A stretch of 47,325 bases of DNA from a virus (lineage: Duplodnaviria; Heunggongvirae; Uroviricota; Caudoviricetes; Demerecviridae), in the IMG/VR virus record IMGVR_UViG_2706796127_000001, positions 64,001 through 111,325 of that record, one strand, 5' to 3'. Shown here in pieces: positions 2,729-27,637 of the stretch (its first letter is position 1; each line of letters opens with the position of its first letter). Both the position numbers and the translations under genes were made by a program. Under the pieces are notes generated by a model, which did no database searches, was not told where the DNA came from, and was given only the letters and a program-made list of their open reading frames with translations.

Positions 2729-3624
2729 TTTTTAATTTCTCCAAAGAAATCTATTCTCACGGGGTCTGAAGAAGCAGTAGGTATAATATCCCACTCAACT
2801 CTATACACATCTGAGAAGTCTAGGCGTTTTGTAATACGTGCTGAAGGAAAATCTATAGAAATATTATTATTTCTTATATTTAAAGGTACATCTACCTCTG
2901 GTTCGATATTGTAAACCATATCTCCTGCAAAACGTTTTAAGTAATATAGAGAAATGGTTGCCGAAGCATTCATTTCATTTACATAAGCTCTTTTATTATT
3001 ATAGATTTTATTTATATCAAAAACACTCTTATCCTCTCTCCAGGAGCACTGCTGTTGGAAAGATAAAGAGGCTGAAATAAGGCCGGGTAAGGTGCTGCCA
3101 TTAGTAGAAGCTATTACTGGGCTGTAAGACATTACTTCACCCTGTATAATAGAAGCTGCTTCTCTATAGGTAGATACTTCTGAGAATTTCCCAGACTCAA
3201 TACCAACATTAAGAATTGGTATGTTCTTATCTAAAGAAAAATCTACTGTAGATACATAACAGTTTTCAAAGTATACACAGTTATTATCTTTGTTTACTAT
3301 ATAGATATTAAACATAATAGGTTCAATGTTATTACTATATAGTGGGAGTAAGAAAGTATTGCCTTTTCTATCAAAACCTAACCATTCAAAGAAGTTAGCC
3401 TCCGTAAGAGTATTACTAAAATTTACTGCTAGAGAGATAGAAGAGGGGGTTTGAGCATTTATAATAGAGTCTGCATAGTTAGTTCTACGATGAACAGTCC
3501 TACGAAGAGTCTTGAATTCCTCGTAGGAAGTCTGTATATCATAGTTTGATAGGGCATCAAAATGAAATGCCCTACCATCATACTCAACTATAACTTTTGA
3601 CTCTCTCATTAGAGAGTAATACAT
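2725..3624 (-). CDS. Minor tail / baseplate tube protein (T5 p140-like)
   Basis: 299 aa beta-rich protein directly downstream of the major tail gene, as in T5. Confidence 0.8.
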   Translation of the reverse strand: MYYSLMRESKVIVEYDGRAFHFDALSNYDIQTSYEEFKTLRRTVHRRTNYADSIINAQTPSSISLAVNFSNTLTEANFFEWLGFDRKGNTFLLPLYSNNIEPIMFNIYIVNKDNNCVYFENCYVSTVDFSLDKNIPILNVGIESGKFSEVSTYREAASIIQGEVMSYSPVIASTNGSTLPGLISASLSFQQQCSWREDKSVFDINKIYNNKRAYVNEMNASATISLYYLKRFAGDMVYNIEPEVDVPLNIRNNNISIDFPSARITKRLDFSDVYRVEWDIIPTASSDPVRIDFFGEIKK

Positions 3625-5064: not shown

Positions 5065-5553
5065 TTATCTGCGAAGTGACCTACGTGGAGGCTGATACCT
5101 CACTGTTACATTTATTTCTGCTAAACCATATGGGGCCAGTAGACCCTCATCTGTACTAACTGATGTAATGATCATATCGGTTGCCTCACAGGGGAAGGTC
5201 GATCCATTAGGTTTACTAACAGTATATTCTAAATTTCCGCCTGTGTCAATAACGGTTTTTATGTCCGCTACGAGTTTTTCTAGGGAAGATTGAATATCTC
5301 CATCAGTATCTTTATCATACACCAGGATTGGAAGTTCTAAAAACATCCACTGTTGGCCTGAAGGAAGGTACTGCCCAGTTTCAGTTCCGATGTGAACTGC
5401 CACATAAGGAAACTCGCGTATTTCCTCAAATTTATAAGTTTGACGAGAAACGTTTCCATATAGATTATTAAAATATTCGTCAGGTTGAGAACCATCCATT
5501 TGTGTGGAGATTCGATCAACCAAGGCTTGTGCAATACTTGTTCTATGATCCAT
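5065..5553 (-). CDS. Tail terminator protein (T5 p142-like)
   Basis: 162 aa immediately upstream of the major tail gene; T5 synteny. Confidence 0.8.
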   Translation of the reverse strand: MDHRTSIAQALVDRISTQMDGSQPDEYFNNLYGNVSRQTYKFEEIREFPYVAVHIGTETGQYLPSGQQWMFLELPILVYDKDTDGDIQSSLEKLVADIKTVIDTGGNLEYTVSKPNGSTFPCEATDMIITSVSTDEGLLAPYGLAEINVTVRYQPPRRSLRR

Positions 5554-5556
5554 TTA

Positions 5557-6324
5557 TTAGGTTCCTTGATTAACCTTGATTTTATATCTAGAGTGAATCA
5601 GGTCTCTTGCAGCTTTTGCTATAGCCTCACCAATAAGTTTTTGGGGGTTTCTAGCACCAGGATAAGGTCGTAGAGATAGTCTCCTGTAGGTAGATACTGC
5701 CGGATTGAACACAGAATATGGACGAGTCATATAATTGTATGTTACGTTTAATTCAGGAGAGCCTTTACTAGTTTCAGCATCTCTTAGCATTACATCCTTA
5801 ACTTTAAGAGAGTTAGCAAAGCGTCCTGTTCTAAATTTCAAAGGAGCCCCTGCTTTCTTCATATCTTTAATTAAGTATTCTTTAGCAACTATCTCTAATA
5901 TAACCTTCATATTGCTATTAGACACGAAACGTCCGGAAGCACCTATTATTGCACCTGAGTATCCATCCTCTACGTCTCTAGGATCCCCAAAGTTTACCTG
6001 TACTCTGCCTGTAGAACGTTTTTTACCTACTGAGGATTTTTTACCAGCAGTTGCTTGTATTAGGTTTTCTAGGGCACCTAAATCTCCCGAAAGATCTAAA
6101 CTAGAGGATATAGCTTTTAGTATAGAGGCTGCTCTAACATCAAGAAGATCTTGTGATACGGGTTTTGAAAACTTAAAGGATACTTGAGCAACAGTACCAT
6201 CTCTGGTAGGATCTTTTAACCCTGTTTCAACAGAGTATACAACAGTATTCTTATTATTTTCAGATCGTCCTGCAGTATCTAGCTGCTCTTTAATAATTTG
6301 TTTAGCTAGATCGGAAAGAGACAT
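5557..6324 (-). CDS. Tail completion/neck protein (T5 p143-like)
   Basis: 255 aa; T5 synteny. Confidence 0.75.
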   Translation of the reverse strand: MSLSDLAKQIIKEQLDTAGRSENNKNTVVYSVETGLKDPTRDGTVAQVSFKFSKPVSQDLLDVRAASILKAISSSLDLSGDLGALENLIQATAGKKSSVGKKRSTGRVQVNFGDPRDVEDGYSGAIIGASGRFVSNSNMKVILEIVAKEYLIKDMKKAGAPLKFRTGRFANSLKVKDVMLRDAETSKGSPELNVTYNYMTRPYSVFNPAVSTYRRLSLRPYPGARNPQKLIGEAIAKAARDLIHSRYKIKVNQGT

Positions 6325-6836
6325 TATACTCTCCTATATACTTCAATAATAGTACGAATATGCTCTGGAATACCAGATTTAGTATTATTGAAGGTTACTG
6401 TTTCACCACCAATTGTTTTAGCTTGGCGGTAATCTTGTTTATGCCAATGATCTACTAGCATACATGCTGCTAGCTTAAGATCTTCGGGCATCGGATTGAA
6501 TCCACCTTGTGTATATGTTACATCCATATAACCTTCTGGAGGATTAAATTTGAGAAGGATAATACCGTCAGAGTATAGCTTATACTGCTCTGGGTCAATC
6601 TCATTATCGTTAATCGTCACTTTAGTTACGGAGGTAGCAGATGGTGAGCTCAGAAAATATTTCCTACGTGTAGGTTTTGTATTGATTAGCTGGTCTACCG
6701 CATCAGCATCATCCATGCCTAGAAGGCTTGTAATCAGTGCATTGGCAGCAGTAATCATCATTTCTACACCAGATTCTAATTCAGGTCGTTTTAAACCACC
6801 ATATAATCTATAATCTTCAGCTGTGATGATTTGCAT
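6324..6836 (-). CDS. Head completion / head-tail adaptor (T5 p144-like)
   Basis: 170 aa; ...YTQGGFNPMPEDLKLAACMLVDHW resembles head-tail connector families; TAATG coupling to the next gene. Confidence 0.8.
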   Translation of the reverse strand: MQIITAEDYRLYGGLKRPELESGVEMMITAANALITSLLGMDDADAVDQLINTKPTRRKYFLSSPSATSVTKVTINDNEIDPEQYKLYSDGIILLKFNPPEGYMDVTYTQGGFNPMPEDLKLAACMLVDHWHKQDYRQAKTIGGETVTFNNTKSGIPEHIRTIIEVYRRV

Positions 6837-8944: not shown

Positions 8945-9577
8945 TTATTCTTTAACGTAGCCTAAAGCTATCGCAAGTTTTTCTATTTCAGAAAGATTAC
9001 GTTCTTGAGCTGGGACAGCTTTAGAACTTATTGCAGTAAAAGATTTACGCCATTCAGTATAATCATGACCATTCATGCTCTTAGCGAGATTGAATGTCGA
9101 GTCCTGATTACAAGGTACAGAAACTACCGAAACTTCGTATAGTTCTAAATCTTTAATAATAAATATATCAGTAGCTTCATCCCATTCTGCGTCTAGGCAG
9201 CGGAATCCGATACTAAAAGTTTTCAGTACACCGTTTTTAATTAGTGAAAAGATAGCCGGATCAGAACTTTCATAGATCTCGCATTCGATTTCGAGACCCA
9301 TTTCAGTAGGGTTAAGATCAATACACTTGCCGATTGGACGACGATGATCGTGTCCGAAAAGAATAATCGGGTTTTTCATATAGTTAGTAAGTGCATTAGA
9401 TGTTTTCCACGCAGAAGCAGGAATTACATCACCAGCGCGATCTTTACTAATTGTATTAGCGAATCCACGGATTTTTACAACGCCCTCTTTGGATTCGCTA
9501 TCAATAGATTTAATATAAGCATCTAAATGAACGGGTGCTGATTTTAACTTGTTATAGTCAATAGCAGCTTGTGTCAT
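8945..9577 (-). CDS. pb11: Prohead maturation protease
   Basis: 210 aa; HK97-type protease motifs ILFGHDH..PIG, FSIGF, LYEVSVVSVPCN. Confidence 0.93.
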   Translation of the reverse strand: MTQAAIDYNKLKSAPVHLDAYIKSIDSESKEGVVKIRGFANTISKDRAGDVIPASAWKTSNALTNYMKNPIILFGHDHRRPIGKCIDLNPTEMGLEIECEIYESSDPAIFSLIKNGVLKTFSIGFRCLDAEWDEATDIFIIKDLELYEVSVVSVPCNQDSTFNLAKSMNGHDYTEWRKSFTAISSKAVPAQERNLSEIEKLAIALGYVKE

Positions 9578-9580
9578 TTA

Positions 9581-10075
9581 TTAGCCTCCAGGAACAGTAG
9601 GATTAACTGTCACAGCACATGCAGTAGAATCCTTACTTACTTGCTTACTATCTGTTACAGTTACTTTATAAGAGCCGGCATCCTCAGCTGCTGCTGTAGG
9701 TTTAGTATAGATAGCTCCTGAAGCATCCGGAATAGGAGAACCATCCTTAGTCCATGCATAAGTATATGGACCAGTACCGCCGGTTGCAGTAACAGAAAGG
9801 GTTAACGCTGCTCCCTCTTCAACGGACATGCTAGCAGTTAAATCTTTAGAAAGAGTTAAGGGCGGAGCAGGCTGAGCAGGAGGAACTGCTTTACCATAAG
9901 CCTCTACAAATTTCTTCCATACTTTACGGTTAGTATGCGCAGATGAAAGTCCTAGTTCTCTACGCAGAAAAGCATAGCTAGGAACATATTTATGCGCAGC
10001 AACCGTAGCAAAGAAGATATGAGATTCTGGCAGTTTTTCACCAAAAATGGTCTTTAGACCATTATAATCAATCAT
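9581..10075 (-). CDS. pb10: Capsid decoration protein with C-terminal Ig-like domain
   Basis: 164 aa; Ig segment LTLSVTATGGTGPYTYAWTKDG...DAGSYKVTVTD. Confidence 0.9.
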   Translation of the reverse strand: MIDYNGLKTIFGEKLPESHIFFATVAAHKYVPSYAFLRRELGLSSAHTNRKVWKKFVEAYGKAVPPAQPAPPLTLSKDLTASMSVEEGAALTLSVTATGGTGPYTYAWTKDGSPIPDASGAIYTKPTAAAEDAGSYKVTVTDSKQVSKDSTACAVTVNPTVPGG

Positions 10076-11289
10076 TCTTTATCTCCCTCGGTGGAACCTT
10101 GAGGTCTACCACCTTCTTGACCCGATACACCTGTTGCAGAACCAGCAACGTTAGCAGGAATACGAATCTTATTCATCTGCTCATCATCTAAAGGTTCAAG
10201 GTTCAGCTCTAAACGAGCTTCGTTACCAGTCATAATACCATTATTAACCAATGAGGTTAAATGTTTAGCCTCAGATTCTTTATCTGGTGTTAATGCAGCT
10301 ACTTCCTTAGTATTAGGAGTAATCTTATAACCAAAAAAGAAAGTAAGAGAACTAGTCAGCTTATTCAGCATAGGGATGATAGTCATGTAATAGAACAGTT
10401 CGATATTTGGTCGAATGTTTGCATTATTACCACCATCAAGTAGCACTTGCGGAACACCAAAGGCTAGACAGATGGACTTATTAAATCCTTCAATGTCTTC
10501 CTTAAAGTCTAGATCTTTAAAAGAGGATATTTGGGAGTACGGTTTAGCTTTCATACCACCATCTAGAATCAGGACAGAGGACTGACCAGTACTAGGATTA
10601 TAATCTAGTTGTAATTCTTCTTGTTTACGCTCACGCAATTTCTTGTTCAGGATTTCATCCGTCTCAAGAATAAGACCAATCACGGTTCCGTTATCGAGGA
10701 ACTTCTCTTTAAAGTTAAGCATCTTAGAACGCTTCTCAAGAGAATCAATAACAGTAGCAACACGAGATTGTCCAGAAATTTGAGAATTTGTGCCACACAC
10801 GTAACTGTTATCCTTTATAAAGATAATCTCATCTACGCGATAGTCTATCTGGTTATTAAATATAAATTTTTTGATAAACTTATTGGCATCTGCCTCTACT
10901 TGCATTAATGCAGCAGGGACATGATAAAGTGCTGTGCCATCCCAATAGATGTATGCACAACCTTCAAAAAGTAGGTCAGTGACTACAAGTCTACGGAATG
11001 TGCTTATATCCATGAATGGATTAGGTCGTACATTTAAGAGAGTGTCTAGAGTCTTTGCCTTGATGCCATTAGCATACGTGACAATATTATATTTATCTCC
11101 GACAGTATAAGAACACTCCGCCGCACTATCTATAACCATATTAGCAGTTCTATTGAGAATCTCAATTTTACTGTAGGCTTGTCCAGTGGTAAAAGGCTTA
11201 CGGTTAGTGCGATGACTAACTGGTTCCATGTCTCTTATAATACGTTGACCCGGATTTAGCTTTTCAGTAATCCAGCTTTTAAAACCCAT
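10072..11289 (-). CDS. pb7: Portal protein
   Basis: 405 aa HK97-family portal (ICLAFGVPQVLL, MTGNEARLELNLEP). Confidence 0.93.
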   Translation of the reverse strand: MGFKSWITEKLNPGQRIIRDMEPVSHRTNRKPFTTGQAYSKIEILNRTANMVIDSAAECSYTVGDKYNIVTYANGIKAKTLDTLLNVRPNPFMDISTFRRLVVTDLLFEGCAYIYWDGTALYHVPAALMQVEADANKFIKKFIFNNQIDYRVDEIIFIKDNSYVCGTNSQISGQSRVATVIDSLEKRSKMLNFKEKFLDNGTVIGLILETDEILNKKLRERKQEELQLDYNPSTGQSSVLILDGGMKAKPYSQISSFKDLDFKEDIEGFNKSICLAFGVPQVLLDGGNNANIRPNIELFYYMTIIPMLNKLTSSLTFFFGYKITPNTKEVAALTPDKESEAKHLTSLVNNGIMTGNEARLELNLEPLDDEQMNKIRIPANVAGSATGVSGQEGGRPQGSTEGDKE

Positions 11290-19119: not shown

Positions 19120-20784
19120 TTATGCGAAAAATTTGCCGTTTTTAAAGTCAATCAAAGTGCGCTGGCCGTTTGCATAGGTAATTAAATGCGTTTGCGTCCA
19201 GCTTGACGCGCCAACGTTGTATCCCATATCCAGACTACCAGCGACGCCAGCGGTATAAACGCCGCCGTAAATGCTGGCGGTGTGGGTGTGCCCCGTGTTT
19301 AACTTGCCCAATTTCTTGAATTGCTTCGGATTGCCACGGCTGCCGTTAATGCCGTTGTGACCGTGTACACCGCACTCAATGCCTGCAATTTTAAATGATT
19401 GGTCAGTGGTCAGAAAAATCGCGTTAAACTCGCAACCTGCAACCGTACGCAGCGCATAATCTAGCACGTTGAAAGTATCATCCTGCCTTGCAATAGCTGC
19501 ATAGATAGCAGCATTAAGGCGGTGATACAGTTCGGCGTTGGCTGGATCGTCCTTAATGTTAGCATTACGATCATCAAGCCAACGAGAGAGCGCCAAATCG
19601 TGATTCGATTCGACAATGATCGTTTGACTAAAATCGCGCTCCATTGATTCTAGTACGCGCCCCGTATCGATCAAATCATCCATAACCTTATCACGTCCGG
19701 CTGCATACTGTTTCGCTAGGAATACACCAGACGCGCGGTTGTGGTGGTTGCGTGATGTAAAATCATGCACGTCATGCACAAACTGATATTTAGGCTTGAG
19801 AATATCAAGCAAGCTGTTTTCGCCAGCCCATGACGCTGCGGCGCACTCATCATCTAATTTTTCAGCGTGCACGTCGCCATATTGCAAGCCTAAAACATGC
19901 CCCGACGTTTCAAAACATCCGGCGGGGGTGGCGCAAATATTCAAATCGTAAAACATGCCGCTTTCGTCCATTGTTTCAAGCTGGCGCACAAAAAACTCAC
20001 CGTCTTCGTCGAACTCGACAATAAGCGCGCCGTAATTATGCAATGCTTCCGCTTTTTGCCCTGCTTTCTGCTGGATGTAGTTTTTAAGCGTTGCCGTTCC
20101 GGTTGAGTACATGCGGCGTACTACTTCACCTTTGAGAGCTGGCACGTTTTCGGCGGTAATTTTAGCGTGACCAATTGCCAGACCTTCAATATTTAGAGCC
20201 GTTGCAGTTTCTGCAAATCCAGATAGCGGATAATCTGCGGTGGGCAAAACATTAATTTCAGCCATGAAAGCGAAACGGCGGTTATTTAAAAACACGTTTT
20301 TGCTGCAAATATATTTATCAAACGCGGAATCATATTTGATTCCGTCTGCGCCTTCACCATTTTGAAAGCCGTTTTTATTATAAACATACTTAGAAACAAG
20401 CAAATCAGCGCCGCAAAATTTAGCATATTGTTCAAGTGAGGCTAAAAAGTTTTTATGCGGGAAAGTATTATTCTGAATCGATGTAATAATAAAGCGTTTA
20501 CCCTGTTTTACTTCCCACTGTTCCACCGTGCTGGAAATAATTCCAGCCGCCTCGGGGCGCTCGTCGTTTTTAATGGCTTTTGCTACTTTTGCCGTTTTCG
20601 GTTTCGCTGGTTTATTTGCTTCTAACCAATCACAAATCGCGGTAGAGTGTTTTGCAGTATCATAAACCGCTTTAGAAATATCGTCGCAGACTTCCAGCCG
20701 GGTGGCGCGTAGACGTTTACCGTAGAAATTAAAGTCAGCGGCCAGCTTCAGGATAACGGTTTGTTTTTCTGCGGAAATAATCAT
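19120..20784 (-). CDS. A1: A1 protein (host DNA degradation / second-step transfer); metallophosphoesterase-like C-terminal half
   Basis: Start moved to MIISAEKQ (554 aa); motifs GDVH, HDVHD, ESNHD, HGH, GHTH. Confidence 0.92.
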   Translation of the reverse strand: MIISAEKQTVILKLAADFNFYGKRLRATRLEVCDDISKAVYDTAKHSTAICDWLEANKPAKPKTAKVAKAIKNDERPEAAGIISSTVEQWEVKQGKRFIITSIQNNTFPHKNFLASLEQYAKFCGADLLVSKYVYNKNGFQNGEGADGIKYDSAFDKYICSKNVFLNNRRFAFMAEINVLPTADYPLSGFAETATALNIEGLAIGHAKITAENVPALKGEVVRRMYSTGTATLKNYIQQKAGQKAEALHNYGALIVEFDEDGEFFVRQLETMDESGMFYDLNICATPAGCFETSGHVLGLQYGDVHAEKLDDECAAASWAGENSLLDILKPKYQFVHDVHDFTSRNHHNRASGVFLAKQYAAGRDKVMDDLIDTGRVLESMERDFSQTIIVESNHDLALSRWLDDRNANIKDDPANAELYHRLNAAIYAAIARQDDTFNVLDYALRTVAGCEFNAIFLTTDQSFKIAGIECGVHGHNGINGSRGNPKQFKKLGKLNTGHTHTASIYGGVYTAGVAGSLDMGYNVGASSWTQTHLITYANGQRTLIDFKNGKFFA

Positions 20785-20880
20785 AGTAATAAACTCCATT
20801 AAAGGGATAAAAAACGTTTGTTATTGGCAAATGTTGCCAAATATAACGCCTCCAATAATAGGCGTTATAATTTGCAATAT

Positions 20881-21135: not shown

Positions 21136-21543
21136 TTATTCACCTGCGGCCTGTTTTACTTCATCGGCAACGCCTAACAACTGCGCCACGGCGTCCAGCG
21201 TTTCCAGTTTCGCGCTTTCAAGGCTTGCCAGATCATCGGCGTCCTTGATAATGCCGGAATCGATGGCATGTTTTGCAATTACTCGCACATAATGAGCTTT
21301 ACGGATTGAACTGCCGCCGCCAACTTTGCGCGGCTTGTCGCTTTTCTGATAGGCTTTCGCGCTGGTCAGTTTTGATCGAACGGATACGGGGGAGGCCGCG
21401 CCTACTGCCTTTGCAATCTCTTTCAGGCCGTCGCTATTTGCAAAATCTAAACCGTTTTCGCTGATTAGTTGCTGATACATGGTAACAGCTTTTTGGGTGT
21501 TTTCTTCATTCCATGAGAATTTTGCGGTTTTTGCGTTAGTCAT
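21136..21543 (-). CDS. A2: A2 DNA-binding protein (second-step transfer)
   Basis: 135 aa MTNAKTAKFSWNEENTQKAV..., recognised as T5 A2. Confidence 0.9.
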   Translation of the reverse strand: MTNAKTAKFSWNEENTQKAVTMYQQLISENGLDFANSDGLKEIAKAVGAASPVSVRSKLTSAKAYQKSDKPRKVGGGSSIRKAHYVRVIAKHAIDSGIIKDADDLASLESAKLETLDAVAQLLGVADEVKQAAGE

Positions 21544-22614: not shown

Positions 22615-22839
22615 TTATATTTGCTTTCCCCTACTTGACAAAATCTAAAAAGCTCGTGGCAGCGATAAACGGCTTATCCCCTTATGATGGGATGGCTAAA
22701 AACTTTATCGCGTTCTAGGGCGTTTTAGGCCGCCTATTTTCGATTTAACAAATCATTAACAAAAGCAAAATTGAAAAATAGTTAGAAAAGGTCTTGACTT
22801 TTAAAAATCAAGATCAAATGACTTATTTTATAAAATAAA

Positions 22840-23358
22840 TTAATTGACAATTCCAAATTCAGCTTTTTTAATTTCAAGCCATAATAATAACTCTTGTAAA
22901 TCATAACCTGACTTACTAACACGTTTGTTAGTAATAGGATTCTTAATCTGAGCAGTCAAATAGTCACGCCCGTAAGTATCACGGGGGCGAATTTTATTAA
23001 CGTAAATGTTTCTAGGGATACCATTAGCACGCTTACAGTTTTCATACTCACTAGGAGTACGATTATAGTTATTCTGGGAACTATCAACCGCGCGAAGATT
23101 CCAAATGTTATTATTACGGGGGTTACGATCAATATGATCAATCATTAGCTCGCTATCTATACCGCCATTCATTATACAAAAAATAATTCTATGTACTTTG
23201 AATTGTCCTTTATCTAATAATTCAACTTGCCAATAATTACCATTTAAACCACCTGCGATGGCGTGATCTTCTCGCCACCGTAAAAACGATAACGATGTTT
23301 CATCATAATAAAAGTAACTATTAAAAAGGTCATAATCTATATCTTTATATTTAGGCAT
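22840..23358 (-). CDS. HNH homing endonuclease in the pre-early region
   Basis: KVHRIIF...IDHIDRNPRNNNIWNLR; preceded by an extended -10 (TGATATAAT, 23398-23406). Confidence 0.88.
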   Translation of the reverse strand: MPKYKDIDYDLFNSYFYYDETSLSFLRWREDHAIAGGLNGNYWQVELLDKGQFKVHRIIFCIMNGGIDSELMIDHIDRNPRNNNIWNLRAVDSSQNNYNRTPSEYENCKRANGIPRNIYVNKIRPRDTYGRDYLTAQIKNPITNKRVSKSGYDLQELLLWLEIKKAEFGIVN

Positions 23359-23541
23359 CTAATTGTTTCCTTATGTTATTAATTTAATCTCTATTATATT
23401 ATATCAAAATGATTAGCAGACTAGCTAATGAGTTTTTCAGGTTTAATTAGCCGACTCATAATCACTCTAAAAACCTATTAGCCAACTAACTATATTTTAC
23501 GATATAATAACTACATAAATTAGTTAGTGAGAACTACTATC

Positions 23542-23656
23542 ATTTAAGTTATCCACAAAGTTATCCCCAGCACTTTTTGACTTGACACAATAGGCGGCGA
23601 TATGAGGGCTTTTACACAGACTTATCCACAGGTTATCCTACTGTATAAATATACAG
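23542..23656 (+). promoter_or_regulatory. Module of 4 DnaA-box-like sites plus a LexA (SOS) box, left copy
   Basis: TTATCCACA at 23549 and 23622, variants at 23561 and 23633; CTGTATAAATATACAG at 23641-23656. Confidence 0.8.
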
Positions 23657-23931
23657 GGTAAAAAGGCAGTGTTAACAACTGCAATCAATTTTAGGCCGCC
23701 TAAAACGCTTTCTAACGAGCTAAACGCTGCGGGGCAATATTAAAGTAAAGACCCAACACGGCGGCCAGGTGGATTCAGTGCGGCGGCCTGGTGGCTTCGC
23801 CGTGTTTTGTCCCGCAGCGGTTATCATAAAAATAGGCGTTAGGCAAGGAAAATAAAAAAGTAAAATAATCTTTGCCTATGCTAGAAAATTACCCTTATCA
23901 TTCACTCACCGATTAACGAGGGGGCCAACAA

Positions 23932-24918
23932 ATGCGGCTATATAAACCAGATAACGCAACCGTCTTAAAAGGTGCGCTGCGTAACCTGCTGGATGGTAGC
24001 AGAACAACCAGCATTAAGCATTTTGTTTTCAATATTGAAACTATTCATCAAAACTTTTTTGATGATTATGATGCTTATAATATGAATAGTTTTCTACCGT
24101 TATATAAGCAAGGGGCAACGCTTGTTTTGTATAATCAGGATTATCAATTGCTCACTAGTCGGGGGCCGGATACTGATTTCATAATCGTAAAAGGCAACAC
24201 AGTAAAAGCCTATGATACTGGGGCGGGCTTAGAAGTTTTTTCAATAGAAAACTATGAGGCCAATGATAATGATCTTTATGACGTAGAAAATTTTCTCGAT
24301 TCATTTTGGCGTTATTTATCAGTTGGCTGGAATCGGTCGGATTCTGATGGGTATCGTTTTGCGGCTATAATGGCCTTTGATGATAACGGTAATTTTTTGC
24401 TACCGTCGGAGTTATATAATCGGGTATATGAAGGCGATATTGTTGACGCCGGATTTTCTTTCGAAAGGGAAGAAAGTATTGGCAATATAGAAAAACATGC
24501 TGTAAATTCTAACACTAAAAACGTTCACGCTCAAACTACTGAAAACAAAGGAAAAAACACCATGACCAAGATCGCCAATATCGTTGCCGCCAATAAATCC
24601 GCTGCTGTAAATGCTGCAAAACTGGAAGCGGGTAAAATTGCACTGACTCAAATTACGAAAGTAGCGGCTAAAAAAGCGCCCTTCATGATTAAAGGCTATA
24701 TTGATACGCCGATTGGTCGCGTAGTGATCGCTAACCTGCTGAGTGTAGCGGTTGACCAGTACGCCCCAAGTAACCAGAAAGCGAAAGCGGTAGCAAGCGC
24801 GGCTATGGAAGCGGCAATGTTAGAAATGGTGCAAAGTTTTAACATCGCTGAGATGATCGATGAAATGGTAAAAGGTATCGATATTTCTACTTTTACCGTT
24901 AACAACGAAAGCGAGTAA
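23932..24918 (+). CDS. Pre-early hypothetical protein with possible internal start
   Basis: 328 aa; Ala-rich C-terminal third starts at in-frame ATG 24562. Confidence 0.8.
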   Translation: MRLYKPDNATVLKGALRNLLDGSRTTSIKHFVFNIETIHQNFFDDYDAYNMNSFLPLYKQGATLVLYNQDYQLLTSRGPDTDFIIVKGNTVKAYDTGAGLEVFSIENYEANDNDLYDVENFLDSFWRYLSVGWNRSDSDGYRFAAIMAFDDNGNFLLPSELYNRVYEGDIVDAGFSFEREESIGNIEKHAVNSNTKNVHAQTTENKGKNTMTKIANIVAANKSAAVNAAKLEAGKIALTQITKVAAKKAPFMIKGYIDTPIGRVVIANLLSVAVDQYAPSNQKAKAVASAAMEAAMLEMVQSFNIAEMIDEMVKGIDISTFTVNNESE

Positions 24919-24944
24919 TAGCTAACCTAATGTAAAGTTTTGTA

Positions 24945-24972
24945 AAGGTCGCCTTTTATGGCGGCCTTTTTT
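24945..24972 (+). terminator. Intrinsic terminator overlapping an extended -10 promoter
   Basis: AAGGTCGCC/GGCGGCCTT stem plus T run, then TGTTATAAT. Confidence 0.7.
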
Positions 24973-25036
24973 GTTATAATGCCTTTACACCGTTTGAGGA
25001 CGGTTGAAAATTTTCCCAAAAATTTGGAGGCTTAAA

Positions 25037-25267
25037 ATGGTTGCTTTTTCTTCTTCTGACGCTCTTTTCACTGGTAAAGGCTGGGTATCAAATCGCTGGA
25101 TTATTCAAGAAATGGTGCAAGAATACGGCATTGCTAAAACTTATAACACCATACAGGCGCTTTATGATAATGATCAAATCGATCAGCAAACGGCGGGCTT
25201 TTTATTGGATACCCTGAAGGCGGAACACTGTACCAAAAAACAAGCGGCAAAAATTATTTTAATGTAA
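25037..25267 (+). CDS. Pre-early hypothetical protein
   Basis: Start moved to MVAFSS behind GGAGG (76 aa). Confidence 0.75.
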   Translation: MVAFSSSDALFTGKGWVSNRWIIQEMVQEYGIAKTYNTIQALYDNDQIDQQTAGFLLDTLKAEHCTKKQAAKIILM

Positions 25268-25316
25268 TTAATAACGGGGCGTTAGTTTCGCCCCACTAAC
25301 TAGGGGAGTATTACAA

Positions 25317-25466
25317 ATGATTATTTTTCGAGCTATTCTGGCGGGTATCTTGGGCGCTATTTTATCTTTGTTTGCAATAGCTTTCGACGTTCACGCGGTT
25401 ATTATTGGCGCGGGTATCGCTGTATTTTCTTATCTGCTGGGCTGCATGACTAGTAAAGGAGAATAA
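25317..25466 (+). CDS. Small two-helix membrane protein, 49 aa
   Basis: MIIFRAILAGILGAILSLFAIAFDVHAVIIGAGIAVFSYLLGCMTSKGE; GGGGAG SD; below the ORF-track cutoff. Confidence 0.75.
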   Translation: MIIFRAILAGILGAILSLFAIAFDVHAVIIGAGIAVFSYLLGCMTSKGE

Positions 25467-25469
25467 AAA

Positions 25470-25682
25470 ATGATCCGCAACGTTTCTCTTGCACGTTCGA
25501 AAGGCTTTAAGCTGGTGGATGCTAACACGTTCGAGCGTCCAGATTGTAAAATCGAATATGTAGCACGTAATAAAAATGCCTTTCGTGTTACTGAAAAGAA
25601 ATTCGATAAGCGCGGCAACGTGATCACTGAAACGGTTAAATACTTTGCCACCTTTTACGCGGCCTTTCGTGGGGTGTTATAA
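25470..25682 (+). CDS. Pre-early hypothetical protein
   Basis: 70 aa, AAGGAG SD. Confidence 0.8.
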   Translation: MIRNVSLARSKGFKLVDANTFERPDCKIEYVARNKNAFRVTEKKFDKRGNVITETVKYFATFYAAFRGVL

Positions 25683-25683
25683 A

Positions 25684-26028
25684 ATGGTTATTTATGAGGG
25701 CAACCGTTTTGTTGCTAACTGCCTCCCGGCATTATTAGCAAACTATTTAAATCAGCTTTCGCCAACATATAAGGGCGTTATTAATATTTATGAGGGCAAG
25801 GCGCATTATAAAATCAATGCGGTCGTTGCCCGTGAACTAGCGTTTCAATTTTTAACCTTTGCATCTTGCGACGTTCAGGTTATGGGTGAGGCATTAATCG
25901 CAGAAAATGCAGACGATTTTATTAATATTTTCCGCAAGGTGTGCACCGAGCGCCTGATAATGAAAGGCGCATATATTCAATCCACGGCTGATAGTATTGA
26001 AACAGCGTTTCGAAAGGTGGCGCAATGA
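25684..26028 (+). CDS. Pre-early hypothetical protein
   Basis: Start moved to MVIYEGNRF (114 aa). Confidence 0.75.
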   Translation: MVIYEGNRFVANCLPALLANYLNQLSPTYKGVINIYEGKAHYKINAVVARELAFQFLTFASCDVQVMGEALIAENADDFINIFRKVCTERLIMKGAYIQSTADSIETAFRKVAQ

Positions 26029-26288
26029 TTAATCACGGTAATGGTATTTTTACAGTTAGGGGATTGACTGAAGCGCATGATGCAATGTCTGTACGCGCTA
26101 GGGAATTGGGGGCGCAAAACATACCACTAGAAAAGATCCTGGTTGCTATTCGTGGTTGGGCGTATGCTTTGAAAAAATCCCATAAGTCAATTTATATTAA
26201 CAATACTGCGCACATTACATTTTTAGCGGAGGGTGCTGGGCAATTAGAAAACACCGCTATAATTATCACTGATAGCGTGTATGAATAA
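26025..26288 (+). CDS. Hypothetical protein bracketed by 13-bp direct repeats
   Basis: 87 aa; AAGGTGGCGCAAT at 26014-26026 and 26287-26299. Confidence 0.7.
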   Translation: MINHGNGIFTVRGLTEAHDAMSVRARELGAQNIPLEKILVAIRGWAYALKKSHKSIYINNTAHITFLAEGAGQLENTAIIITDSVYE

Positions 26289-26349
26289 GGTGGCGCAATA
26301 AGGTTATATAGTAACGGGGCGCAACTATCCGGAAGTGCCCCCAATTTTC

Positions 26350-26370
26350 AAATGAGAATGATTCTCATTT
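26350..26370. promoter_or_regulatory. Perfect palindromic Fur-box-like site
   Basis: AAATGAGAAT-G-ATTCTCATTT. Confidence 0.7.
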
Positions 26371-26566
26371 GACCGCGCCCGCGATGGTTAGCCCGCTAAT
26401 GGTTAGGGTGTTACGTGTCGCCTTGTGTGATCGTTAGCGGGCTAACTAATTTTCAAGCCTCCTCCAATTTTGCCCTTGTTTTAGTACCCCCAACAAAATT
26501 AAACGCGTTAGAATGCGTTTGAGAGCGTTTTAACGGTATATTAGAATTATTCACTGCGTAGGAATA

Positions 26567-26681
26567 CTGTATATTTATACAGTAGGATAAGCTGTGGATA
26601 AGTCTGTTAATAACGCCTCAAAATGGCTAGAATTTTGTCAAGTCAAATCGTGCTGTTGATAAGTCTGTGGATAACTTAAAT
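26567..26681 (-). promoter_or_regulatory. LexA box plus 4 DnaA-box-like sites, inverted right copy
   Basis: TACTGTATATTTATACAGTA at 26565-26584; TGTGGATAA at 26593 and 26666; TGTTGATAA at 26654. Confidence 0.8.
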
Positions 26682-26699
26682 AACAGTGTTTCTCACTTC

Positions 26700-26985
26700 C
26701 ATTCTTAAATGCGAATCATTATCATTTGCATTCCACTTTCTAAATGAGAATCGTTTCACTTTTTAAATGAGAATCATTCCATTTCCTGAATAATTTTCGT
26801 TTCACTTTCTAAATGATAAGCGTTATCATTTGCATTCCACTTTCTAAATGAGAATCATTCCACTTTCTAAATGAGAAGCATTCCGCTTTTTAAATGAGAG
26901 TGATTCTCATTCCACTTTCTAAATGCGAATTATTATCATTCTCATTCCGCTTTTTGAATGAGAATGATTCTTATTATCATTCGTA
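26700..26985. repeat. Tandem array of ~9 Fur-box-like repeats in the injection-stop region
   Basis: Units AAATG(A/C)GAAT(C/G)ATT(A/C)TCATT joined by TTCCACTTTCT linkers. Confidence 0.85.
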
Positions 26986-26988
26986 TTT

Positions 26989-27012
26989 AGCGCAGGGCAA
27001 TTGCCCTGCGCT
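26989..27012. repeat. Perfect 24-bp palindrome carrying the T5 nick-site motif on both strands
   Basis: AGCGCAGGGCAATTGCCCTGCGCT. Confidence 0.9.
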
Positions 27013-27043
27013 TTTGTGCAAATCCGACATTGCTCCACGGGTG

Positions 27044-27583
27044 TTACGTGCGGGCGTGTATGTGCGAATCCGACCCATTTTTGGTAGTGTGCAAATCCGA
27101 CCCTAAAATTTCATCCCTCCATTTTACTAGGAACTCCAAATCGTAGGAACACTTGGACTTAGTGCCGCTGCTAGTGGGCACATAAGCTCGATAATAGTCC
27201 CCTTTCGATGTAGTACGAGCTACACGGATATATTTTGGTAGATTAATTGTTTTGATATTAGTATCTCTACGATTCCTAGCATTTTTATAATCAGGGATTT
27301 GACGTAAATTTTCTGGACTATTGTTAGTGGGGTCTTGATCTATATGATCTACCTGAAGCTCGGGATCAACACTGCCATTATGCAGGCAGAAAATAATCCG
27401 GGAAACCGCTAGAGTCCCTATCCCATTTACAAAGACCACAAAAGATTTCCTACCTTTCCCGTCGTCCCTTAAAGTGCCTGTATGTTTTCTTTTAGGTAAT
27501 CTACTCAGCCCACTGGGACTTGAGGGGTCAATAAAAAATAAGTCTTTCATTTGTGCGTATTCGATAGGTATATATCTTGACAT
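27044..27583 (-). CDS. HNH homing endonuclease inside the injection-stop repeats
   Basis: AVSRIIF...VDHIDQDPTNNSPENLR; start moved to MSRYIP behind GGAGG (179 aa). Confidence 0.85.
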   Translation of the reverse strand: MSRYIPIEYAQMKDLFFIDPSSPSGLSRLPKRKHTGTLRDDGKGRKSFVVFVNGIGTLAVSRIIFCLHNGSVDPELQVDHIDQDPTNNSPENLRQIPDYKNARNRRDTNIKTINLPKYIRVARTTSKGDYYRAYVPTSSGTKSKCSYDLEFLVKWRDEILGSDLHTTKNGSDSHIHART

Positions 27584-27608
27584 AATAAAATTCCTCCTAT
27601 GAAGTAAT

Positions 27609-27637
27609 ATTATAACAAAATTTTCGAAAGTGTGCAA
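27609..27637 (-). promoter_or_regulatory. Promoter for the HNH gene
   Basis: TTGCAC-17 bp-TATAAT. Confidence 0.7.

Follow-up and report, generated by a model that had tools for sequence, protein, structure and literature searches.

The DNA of phage T5 carries a 131-bp inverted repeat, one arm of which, IRC-spacer-IRD, lies in Repeat Region 2 and the other, IRD'-spacer-IRC', in Repeat Region 3 next to the injection stop signal. The repeat is conserved in 25 T5-like phages and holds eight DnaA boxes in pairs 3 bp apart (Davison 2020, 10.1101/866236). The same work proposes that membrane-bound DnaA holds the DNA at these sites, DnaA binding itself being a proposal there. Directly in front of IRD' it places a palindrome, palD, and it considers that the palindromes may be restriction sites. 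The stop and restart of T5 DNA injection has been a standing question since the 1960s, the cis-acting stop region having no known protein partner. Here we analyse the corresponding region in a window of 47,325 nucleotides (the whole stretch of DNA studied, positions 64,001 to 111,325 of the 111,325-bp IMG/VR record IMGVR_UViG_2706796127_000001). The region matches T5-like phages at 90–95% (Salmonella phage E22, Escherichia phage fp01, SPC35 and others; 525 records), and by these matches the window is that of a T5-like phage of the Demerecviridae. In SPC35 the matching stretch is found inside the annotated left terminal repeat, which “comprises first-step-transfer DNA”; the two inverted modules described below therefore sit in the pre-early, first-injected DNA of the phage. 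The inner end of each module is a palindrome that is very probably a genuine, selected LexA operator (SOS box), joined to the DnaA boxes.

The left LexA box, TACTGTATAAATATACAGGG, occupies positions 23639–23658 (core CTGT-N8-ACAG at 23641–23656) and the right one, TACTGTATATTTATACAGTA, positions 26565–26584 (core at 26567–26582). Relative to the 20-mer LexA consensus they carry three mismatches and one mismatch, respectively, and no such site was expected from shuffled sequences. A first-pass annotation of the window, made from its sequence alone, had described in each module a near-ideal SOS box consisting of CTGT-N8-ACAG with an AT spacer. These counts bear that description out, with the correction that the left box has ...ACAGGG at its end instead of ...ACAGTA. 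All eight central bases are A or T in both sites, as are all ten bases between the CTG and CAG triplets. CTGT-N8-ACAG is found three times in the window (0.48 expected), two of the three being in the modules, and the two boxes are the only sites of the 111,325-bp genome with five mismatches or fewer, the next best having six. The arrangement of a LexA box at most 70 nt from a DnaA box is observed twice versus 0.005 expected.

The quality of the two sites was compared with that of ten operators of E. coli K-12 (recA, lexA x2, sulA, umuD, uvrA/ssb, uvrB, recN x2 and dinB), extracted as CTG-N10-CAG sites from eight SOS promoter regions of NC_000913.3. The host operators differ from the 20-mer consensus at two positions (umuD), three (sulA), four (recA), four and five (the two recN boxes), five and six (the two lexA boxes), five (uvrA/ssb), five (uvrB) and seven (dinB). 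A position weight matrix (PWM) was built from host sites alone; it also took in two probable non-operator CTG-N10-CAG matches, whose only effect is dilution. It scores the phage sites at 23.9 (right) and 20.7 (left) versus 16.3–23.4 for the host operators, so that the right site exceeds every K-12 operator compared. The two module sites also rank first and second in the phage genome, the third position scoring 16.7. Sites of such predicted high affinity, of which each genome would have two to four and which replication would multiply, might act by titrating host LexA and DnaA, which would switch on SOS genes or disturb host replication; the first pass had suggested titration, alongside looping of the incoming DNA and sensing of host DNA damage. 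However, they are too few while the host genes still exist, and half of the host DNA is digested within ~4 min of infection, before phage copies accumulate (2026 T5 deletion study). Titration, with so few sites early and the host DNA gone by the time of high copy number, is therefore exceedingly improbable.

The boxes close the inner ends of two arms (23526–23671 and 26552–26697) that form a 146-nt inverted repeat, 78% complementary in a repeat search, around a rightward pre-early operon. The inverted pair seen in the first pass is thus real, with arms longer than the ~115 bp then given; its 41-nt core (23616–23656 versus 26567–26607) has, read from the sequence, the single G/C mismatch that had been noticed. 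Compared by BLAST and by alignment with T5 and a further 28 genomes, the left module is identified as T5 IRC-spacer-IRD (Repeat Region 2); BLAST and alignment likewise identify the right one as IRD'-spacer-IRC' (Repeat Region 3, beside the injection stop signal). Both modules match the T5 loci of our set (L010 and L013) at 79–90% over 267–290 nt in BLAST. Judged by the gene order of the window against the SPC35 and T5 annotation, their positions also agree with T5, one module lying between the leftward A2/A1 side and the operon and the other between the operon and the injection stop signal (iss) repeats. In T5 itself (AY543070) LexA cores are found at 6213–6228 and 9411–9426, and the iss misc_feature (9140–10149) contains the T5 copy of the right module.

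DnaA boxes were defined as clustered 9-mers matching TT(A/T)TNCACA. All four perfect TTATCCACA boxes of the window fall in the modules (at 23549, 23622, 26593 and 26666). Together with variants at 23561 (TTATCCCCA), 23610 (TTTTACACA), 26605 (TTATTAACA) and 26654 (TTATCAACA) they give each module the four sites, two perfect and two variant, counted in the first pass. The sites are paired at 3-nt spacing, 23549/23561 and 23610/23622 on the left and 26593/26605 and 26654/26666 on the right. Read from its outer end inward, a module shows a block AGTGAGAA, the first of two DnaA pairs, the invariant TTGAC, the other DnaA pair with a partial third box and, innermost, the LexA box. The left outer pair (TTATCCACA-N3-TTATCCCCA, 23549–23569, plus strand) forms conserved columns in an alignment of 57 modules (see below), and its right counterpart is TTATCCACA-N3-TTATCAACA (26654–26674, minus strand). 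The TTGAC core, TTGACTTGACA, lies in mid-spacer (23577–23587, plus strand; mirror copy at 26636–26646), its TTGAC being invariant in the 57 modules. The left inner cluster reads TTTTACACA-N3-TTATCCACA-N2-TTATCCTAC (23610–23641, plus strand) and the right one is its mirror, TTATTAACA-N3-TTATCCACA-N2-TTATCCTAC (26582–26613, minus strand). In each cluster the LexA 20-mer shares its first three bases with the third, partial box, TTATCCTAC. Of the five perfect DnaA boxes in the whole genome, four lie within the modules; with up to one mismatch, DnaA-like 9-mers show no enrichment across the window (15 versus 13.9 expected), and the non-random feature is their clustering.

With A2 as anchor, 39 loci were collected from IMG/VR, in which both modules are present in every genome whose DNA extends far enough; the alignment comprises 57 modules of 29 genomes (28 left and 29 right modules). 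A CTGT-N8-ACAG box next to DnaA boxes is shared by 29 T5-type genomes. None of the 57 modules deviates at box positions A2-C3-T4-G5 or C16-A17, T6 is found in 55 and G18 in 53, and half-site lesions are rare (ACAA in four left modules, CTGG in two right ones). Right modules have TA as the last two bases of the box, left modules GG. Just outside the box the information content drops to 0.2–1.0 bit. Homology between left and right modules thus stops where the box does on its inner side, the only trace of it further inward being a weak 17-nt echo (23701–23717 and 26516–26532).

The two central bases of the box (23648–23649 and 26574–26575 in the window) flip as a unit between AA and TT (45:12 in the 57 modules), independently in left and right modules and with intermediates almost absent, a pattern that suggests an exchange between the arms, or gene conversion in the palindrome, more than point mutation. 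The orientation of the centre was also considered as evidence for an overlapping −10 element, and set aside: it is flipped in 3/28 left versus 9/29 right modules, a difference too weak and phylogenetically non-independent. The flip is what would be expected, if arms exchange, of an element acting through DNA structure, in which an AT-rich palindrome extrudes, unwinds beside the DnaA array or recombines the inverted repeats with no repressor involved; the tandem same-sense DnaA boxes 2–3 nt apart beside an AT-rich stretch would likewise recall origin layouts. Such an element would have no need of exact CTGT/ACAG ends and flanking TA, however, and its stem would be short, AT-rich and hence weak. 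Moreover, conservation in the alignment is base-specific and not pairing-specific, with essentially no compensatory changes between the arms. We hold a purely structural role to be very unlikely.

Because the conserved flanks of close genomes say little, distant lineages were sought through A1. They are represented by Klebsiella phage K7_rec20 (A1 72% identical), Pectobacterium phage My1 (65%), Proteus phage 1 (41%) and the Vibrio phages 70E35-1 (34%), VspSw1 (32%) and Thalassa (30%); Vibrio phage Brizo was left out because its record begins within the region under study. In the Proteus and Vibrio phages the non-coding DNA cannot be aligned with the window, yet in each of them CTGT-N8-ACAG with an AT-rich centre is found directly beside TTATCCACA-type boxes, as in VspSw1 (TTATCCACA-gcttatac-CACTGTATAAATAAACAGTA). 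Every distant locus has one or two LexA cores at most 70 nt from a DnaA box, versus no more than 0.005 expected per locus under a first-order Markov model; one site each of the Klebsiella phage and of My1 carries a CTGG half-site lesion. Loss of the CTG/CAG contacts in relatives that keep the flanks had been named beforehand as the pattern that would speak against LexA. What is found is the reverse, contacts kept where the flanks have diverged beyond alignment. RHEph02, a Rhizobium phage with A1 and dmp, was considered for a covariation test with a different host LexA motif and dropped as uninformative. It is a T7-like Autographivirus with A1 in the replication module and no first-step architecture, and it has four scattered GTTC-N7-GTTC matches versus ~1.5 expected.

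The distant loci also bear on the possibility that the palindrome is the target of a phage protein, for instance the DNA-binding protein A2 or an A1/A2 nuclease (the proposal made by Davison for palindromes), and resembles a LexA box by coincidence or mimicry. PalD is among Davison's candidate cleavage palindromes, and A2 has a core conserved across all lineages (39–65% identity, with an invariant VR.KL...Y.K...K block), so that a conserved A2 site is possible; an attempt to exclude A2 as the binder through its divergence failed on this same core. The proposal nevertheless needs a coincidence with the host consensus at 17–19 of 20 positions in every lineage, and the variation follows the known preferences of LexA (CTG/CAG fixed, AT-rich centre free). 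In addition, the neighbouring boxes are host-protein sites too, and the genome has no further copies, unlike typical phage regulator sites. We consider a phage-encoded binder quite unlikely.

The LexA operator thus appears real by every sequence test run and conserved family-wide. As for what had been described before, the literature covered, which excludes Wang 2005, Heusterspreute 1987 and Davison 2015 (reportedly further sources on the T5 inverted repeats), has nothing relevant on a LexA or SOS box in T5-like, Tequintavirus, Demerecviridae or pre-early DNA. The words LexA and SOS have no occurrence in the text of Davison 2020 (10.1101/866236), where DnaA boxes, repeats and palindromes are named. 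From its position we infer that palD is the LexA box. The first pass had rightly taken the DnaA boxes of the T5 injection-stop region as reported, the eight of Davison 2020 (10.1101/866236). It had taken two further features as undescribed: the abutting LexA box, which was indeed not found in the literature, and the symmetric duplication 2.9 kb apart, which is published in that same work. The repeat and its DnaA boxes are thus known; the LexA reading, the quality of the boxes relative to host operators and their conservation out to Vibrio phages are apparently unpublished.

Candidate promoters are found at both boxes of the window. The left one, an outward (leftward) sigma-70 candidate TTAACA-16-TATATT (23648–23675, minus strand; 10/12 consensus match), has its −10 inside the LexA box; the arrangement occurs in 14 left modules (13 loci and the window) and is weaker in Proteus phage 1. 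The right one, an outward (rightward) candidate TTGAGA-17-TAGAAT (26519–26547, plus strand; 10/12 match), is followed 17 nt after its −10 by the LexA 20-mer, which places the box ~10 nt downstream of the predicted start, and its TATATTAGAAT/TAGAGT element is widely conserved. Both point outward, through the DnaA boxes. A further outward candidate, TTCTCA-18-TATTAT (23504–23533, minus strand), has its −35 in the conserved outer block AGTGAGAA. Two flank families that are unrelated to each other share the −10 of this arrangement (TTCTCA-18-TAT(A/T)(G/A)T) at an identical spacing. The candidate is not the annotated T5 promoter 5938–6012, which maps ~90 nt further outside the module. Just upstream of the bracketed operon, the promoter-like TTGCCT-18-TATCAT (23872–23901, plus strand) corresponds by position to T5 P11, a promoter validated by primer extension (PMC7472727); the T5 record has an annotated promoter at 6411–6489, upstream of T5.011. 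Inward of the left LexA box by 10 nt, a hairpin (GCAGTGTTAACAACTGC, 23666–23682) resembles a terminator on either strand, and transcripts entering inward through a module would probably be short, ~150–200 nt on the left if started from a 10/12 plus-strand promoter match at 23479–23508. Another terminator-like hairpin lies on the minus strand at 26501–26520, ~45 nt inside the right LexA box.

In the distant phages LexA boxes also stand next to promoter motifs. In Proteus phage 1 a TTGACA facing A2 lies 2 nt beyond a lone LexA box. The Vibrio phages 70E35-1 and Thalassa have a LexA box, in Thalassa with one deviating base, 9–10 nt upstream of a sigma-54-type motif, TGGCA(C/T)G-N4-TTGC, facing A2/A1. 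Such boxes, extra to those of the inverted modules and each just upstream of a promoter motif that faces the essential A2/A1 genes, are found in the Proteus and Vibrio phages at 9913–9945 (L043), 10941–10984 (L044) and ~3540–3576 (L045). The leader that follows such a box appears by eye to be conserved between Proteus and Vibrio phages (TACGCATACGC...CTATT); the window has no counterpart of this arrangement. The sigma-54-type motif occurs in six, three and seven copies in the first-step regions of three Vibrio Demerecviridae (L044 7021–10984, L045 501–3576 and L049 7365–10595, respectively), where we estimate ~0.03 expected per locus. Several copies lie at the outer ends of LexA/DnaA clusters, pointing outward, or just after a LexA box towards A2/A1. 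The genome of the window has only one weak TTTC variant of this motif, the Klebsiella and Proteus loci have none and Pectobacterium phage My1 has one good match. This distribution suggests that pre-early transcription in Vibrio T5-like phages may be rpoN-dependent.

The explanation that we favour, with a probability of about 0.4 as a whole, is that each module serves two host proteins as a landing pad on the DNA that enters the cell first. DnaA would bind the two pairs of boxes of each module, and a LexA dimer would bind the CTGT-N8-ACAG palindrome at the inner end, where the third, partial DnaA box overlaps it. LexA, acting with DnaA or competing against it, would hold down weak promoters firing outward through the modules, the left one towards the hegG/hdi/A2/A1 side and the right one towards the injection-stop repeats. 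Transcription at the modules would in this way be tied to the SOS and replication state of the host, which the breakdown of host DNA induced by the phage should itself change. Given LexA binding, itself highly probable from the sequence, transcriptional control would be the likeliest job of the box, at somewhat less than even odds, because promoter motifs lie right beside LexA boxes in the Proteus and Vibrio phages and candidate promoters are found at the boxes of the window. The uvrB/DARS1 region of E. coli (PMC6015884) provides a cellular precedent for joint LexA/DnaA control.

Several observations weigh against this explanation. The promoters near the boxes of the window are candidates by consensus match. 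The TTAACA −35 of the left one is absent in T5 itself and the −35 of the right one is variable among relatives. The experimentally mapped pre-early promoters of T5, P11, P-H22 and P-D/E20, and the annotated promoter 5938–6012 are each ~200 bp or more from the boxes, and the rightward outward promoter would face gene-free DNA inside the terminal repeat. T5 plates on recA1 laboratory (cloning) strains, and cleavage of LexA therefore cannot be an obligatory gate. A T5 mutant lacking hegG to 017 is viable and forms small plaques (2026 T5 deletion study). On the T5 map (hegG 5411–5929, left module ~6098–6228, T5.011 from 6495) this deletion spans the left module, so that the left copy is dispensable in the laboratory. 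The viable deletion and growth on recA1 strains fit a modulatory role better than an essential one, and an essential SOS gate on second-step transfer is unlikely.

A bolder proposal would make the LexA box the timer of the T5 injection pause, through a second-step transfer gated by host state and assisted by transcription. LexA and DnaA on the right module would repress a promoter that fires outward, in the direction of the DNA not yet in the cell, until A1-driven breakdown of host DNA activated RecA and led to LexA cleavage. RNA polymerase, to which A1 is known to bind, would then transcribe towards the pore and help to pull in the remaining genome, by analogy with T7. We regard this whole sequence of events as highly improbable.

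The layout of the modules might instead serve the injection pause through architecture, LexA and DnaA on both modules forming a bulky or membrane-tethered complex that holds the first-step DNA. This is a variant of the DnaA “knot” of Davison with LexA added, removal of LexA or DnaA helping to restart transfer. The right module is found just left of the mapped stop/shear point, almost every T5-like phage has retained the paired inverted layout, and the bracket with LexA boxes on its inner faces recurs in Vibrio phage 70E35-1. The bracketed genes vary in content and orientation between phage types, and the conserved thing is therefore the bracket, not the operon. However, Type 4 phages lack the left repeat altogether, Proteus phage 1 has one full module only, its second LexA box standing alone without adjacent DnaA boxes, and the viable hegG-to-017 deletion by its gene map lacks the left module. 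Nor does a complex on DNA already inside the cell obviously stop further entry, and to our knowledge LexA does not loop or bridge DNA. On balance an architectural role is unlikely, and transcriptional control by LexA and DnaA, in a modulatory form, is the explanation that we retain.

The genes around the modules are ordered as follows. Leftmost in the gene order of the window are dmp and then a gene of 130 amino acids, followed by A1 (19120–20799, minus strand), A2 (21136–21543, minus strand), small genes and an HNH endonuclease gene (22840–23358, minus strand) before the left module. The bracketed pre-early operon (23932–26288, plus strand) has six ORFs, homologues of T5.011–016 by PHROG matches, among which a small Ung-dependent nickase family is represented. 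A 42-nt inverted repeat (74%; 22704–22745 and 23683–23724), containing the palindromic hairpin TTTTAGGCCGCCTAAAA, flanks the HNH gene and the left module, in keeping with the statement by Davison that what was ancestrally one repeat region was divided by an HNH insertion. To the right of the operon is an ORF-poor field of repeats, with a second HNH gene within it (27044–27637, minus strand). In the injection-stop region a 19-nt perfect palindrome, AATGAGAATGATTCTCATT, occurs with ~9 related direct repeats (TTTCTAAATGAGAATCATTC...) at 26345–26369 and 26690–26990, and right of the repeat field TGTGC(A/G)AATCCGAC is found in three copies of the same orientation (27015–27103). A scan for RNA families gave a sole hit, a sub-threshold match to Listeria rliI (28 bits versus a gathering score of 45) inside the repeat array, judged spurious.

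A LexA operator joined to DnaA boxes, and shared by T5-like phages ranging from those of E. coli to those of Vibrio, would name a second specific host protein for the injection-stop region. If real, it would make the unusual case of a strictly virulent phage retaining SOS operators, which implies that the host DNA-damage state is read or exploited in the first minutes of infection. Should LexA bind without effect, “palindrome D” would still be explained and could be dropped from the candidate cleavage sites. Compared with the T5 repeats (IRC-spacer-IRD and IRD'-spacer-IRC'), the modules of the window are the same element, sharing the DnaA pairs 3 nt apart, the position around the T5.011–017 operon and the neighbourhood of iss; to the DnaA boxes, repeats and palindromes named for T5 in the literature covered, the present work adds the LexA reading. 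With the SOS boxes of gammaproteobacteria the phage sites share the 16-nt core CTGT-N8-ACAG, its AT-rich centre and the TA flanks, and they match the consensus as well or better. Unlike the host boxes, they are found in a strictly virulent phage, away from mapped promoters, as an inverted pair ~2.9 kb apart and fused to DnaA-box arrays. The LexA and DnaA boxes of E. coli uvrB/DARS1 overlap, and repression there is exerted jointly by the two proteins, which also compete (PMC6015884). The likeness lies in the interleaved, partly overlapping boxes, TTATCCTAC overlapping the LexA 20-mer in the phage. The E. coli region differs in belonging to a chromosomal repair gene with mapped promoters and no inverted duplication, and in its weak LexA boxes 2–4, where those of the phage are near consensus. 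Temperate phages that use host LexA, such as GIL01 with its gp7 (PMC4551915), likewise carry SOS boxes and so read the LexA state of the host. In GIL01-type phages, however, LexA maintains lysogeny and triggers induction, whereas T5-like phages have no lysogenic state, and the purpose of their SOS boxes must therefore differ from that in temperate phages.

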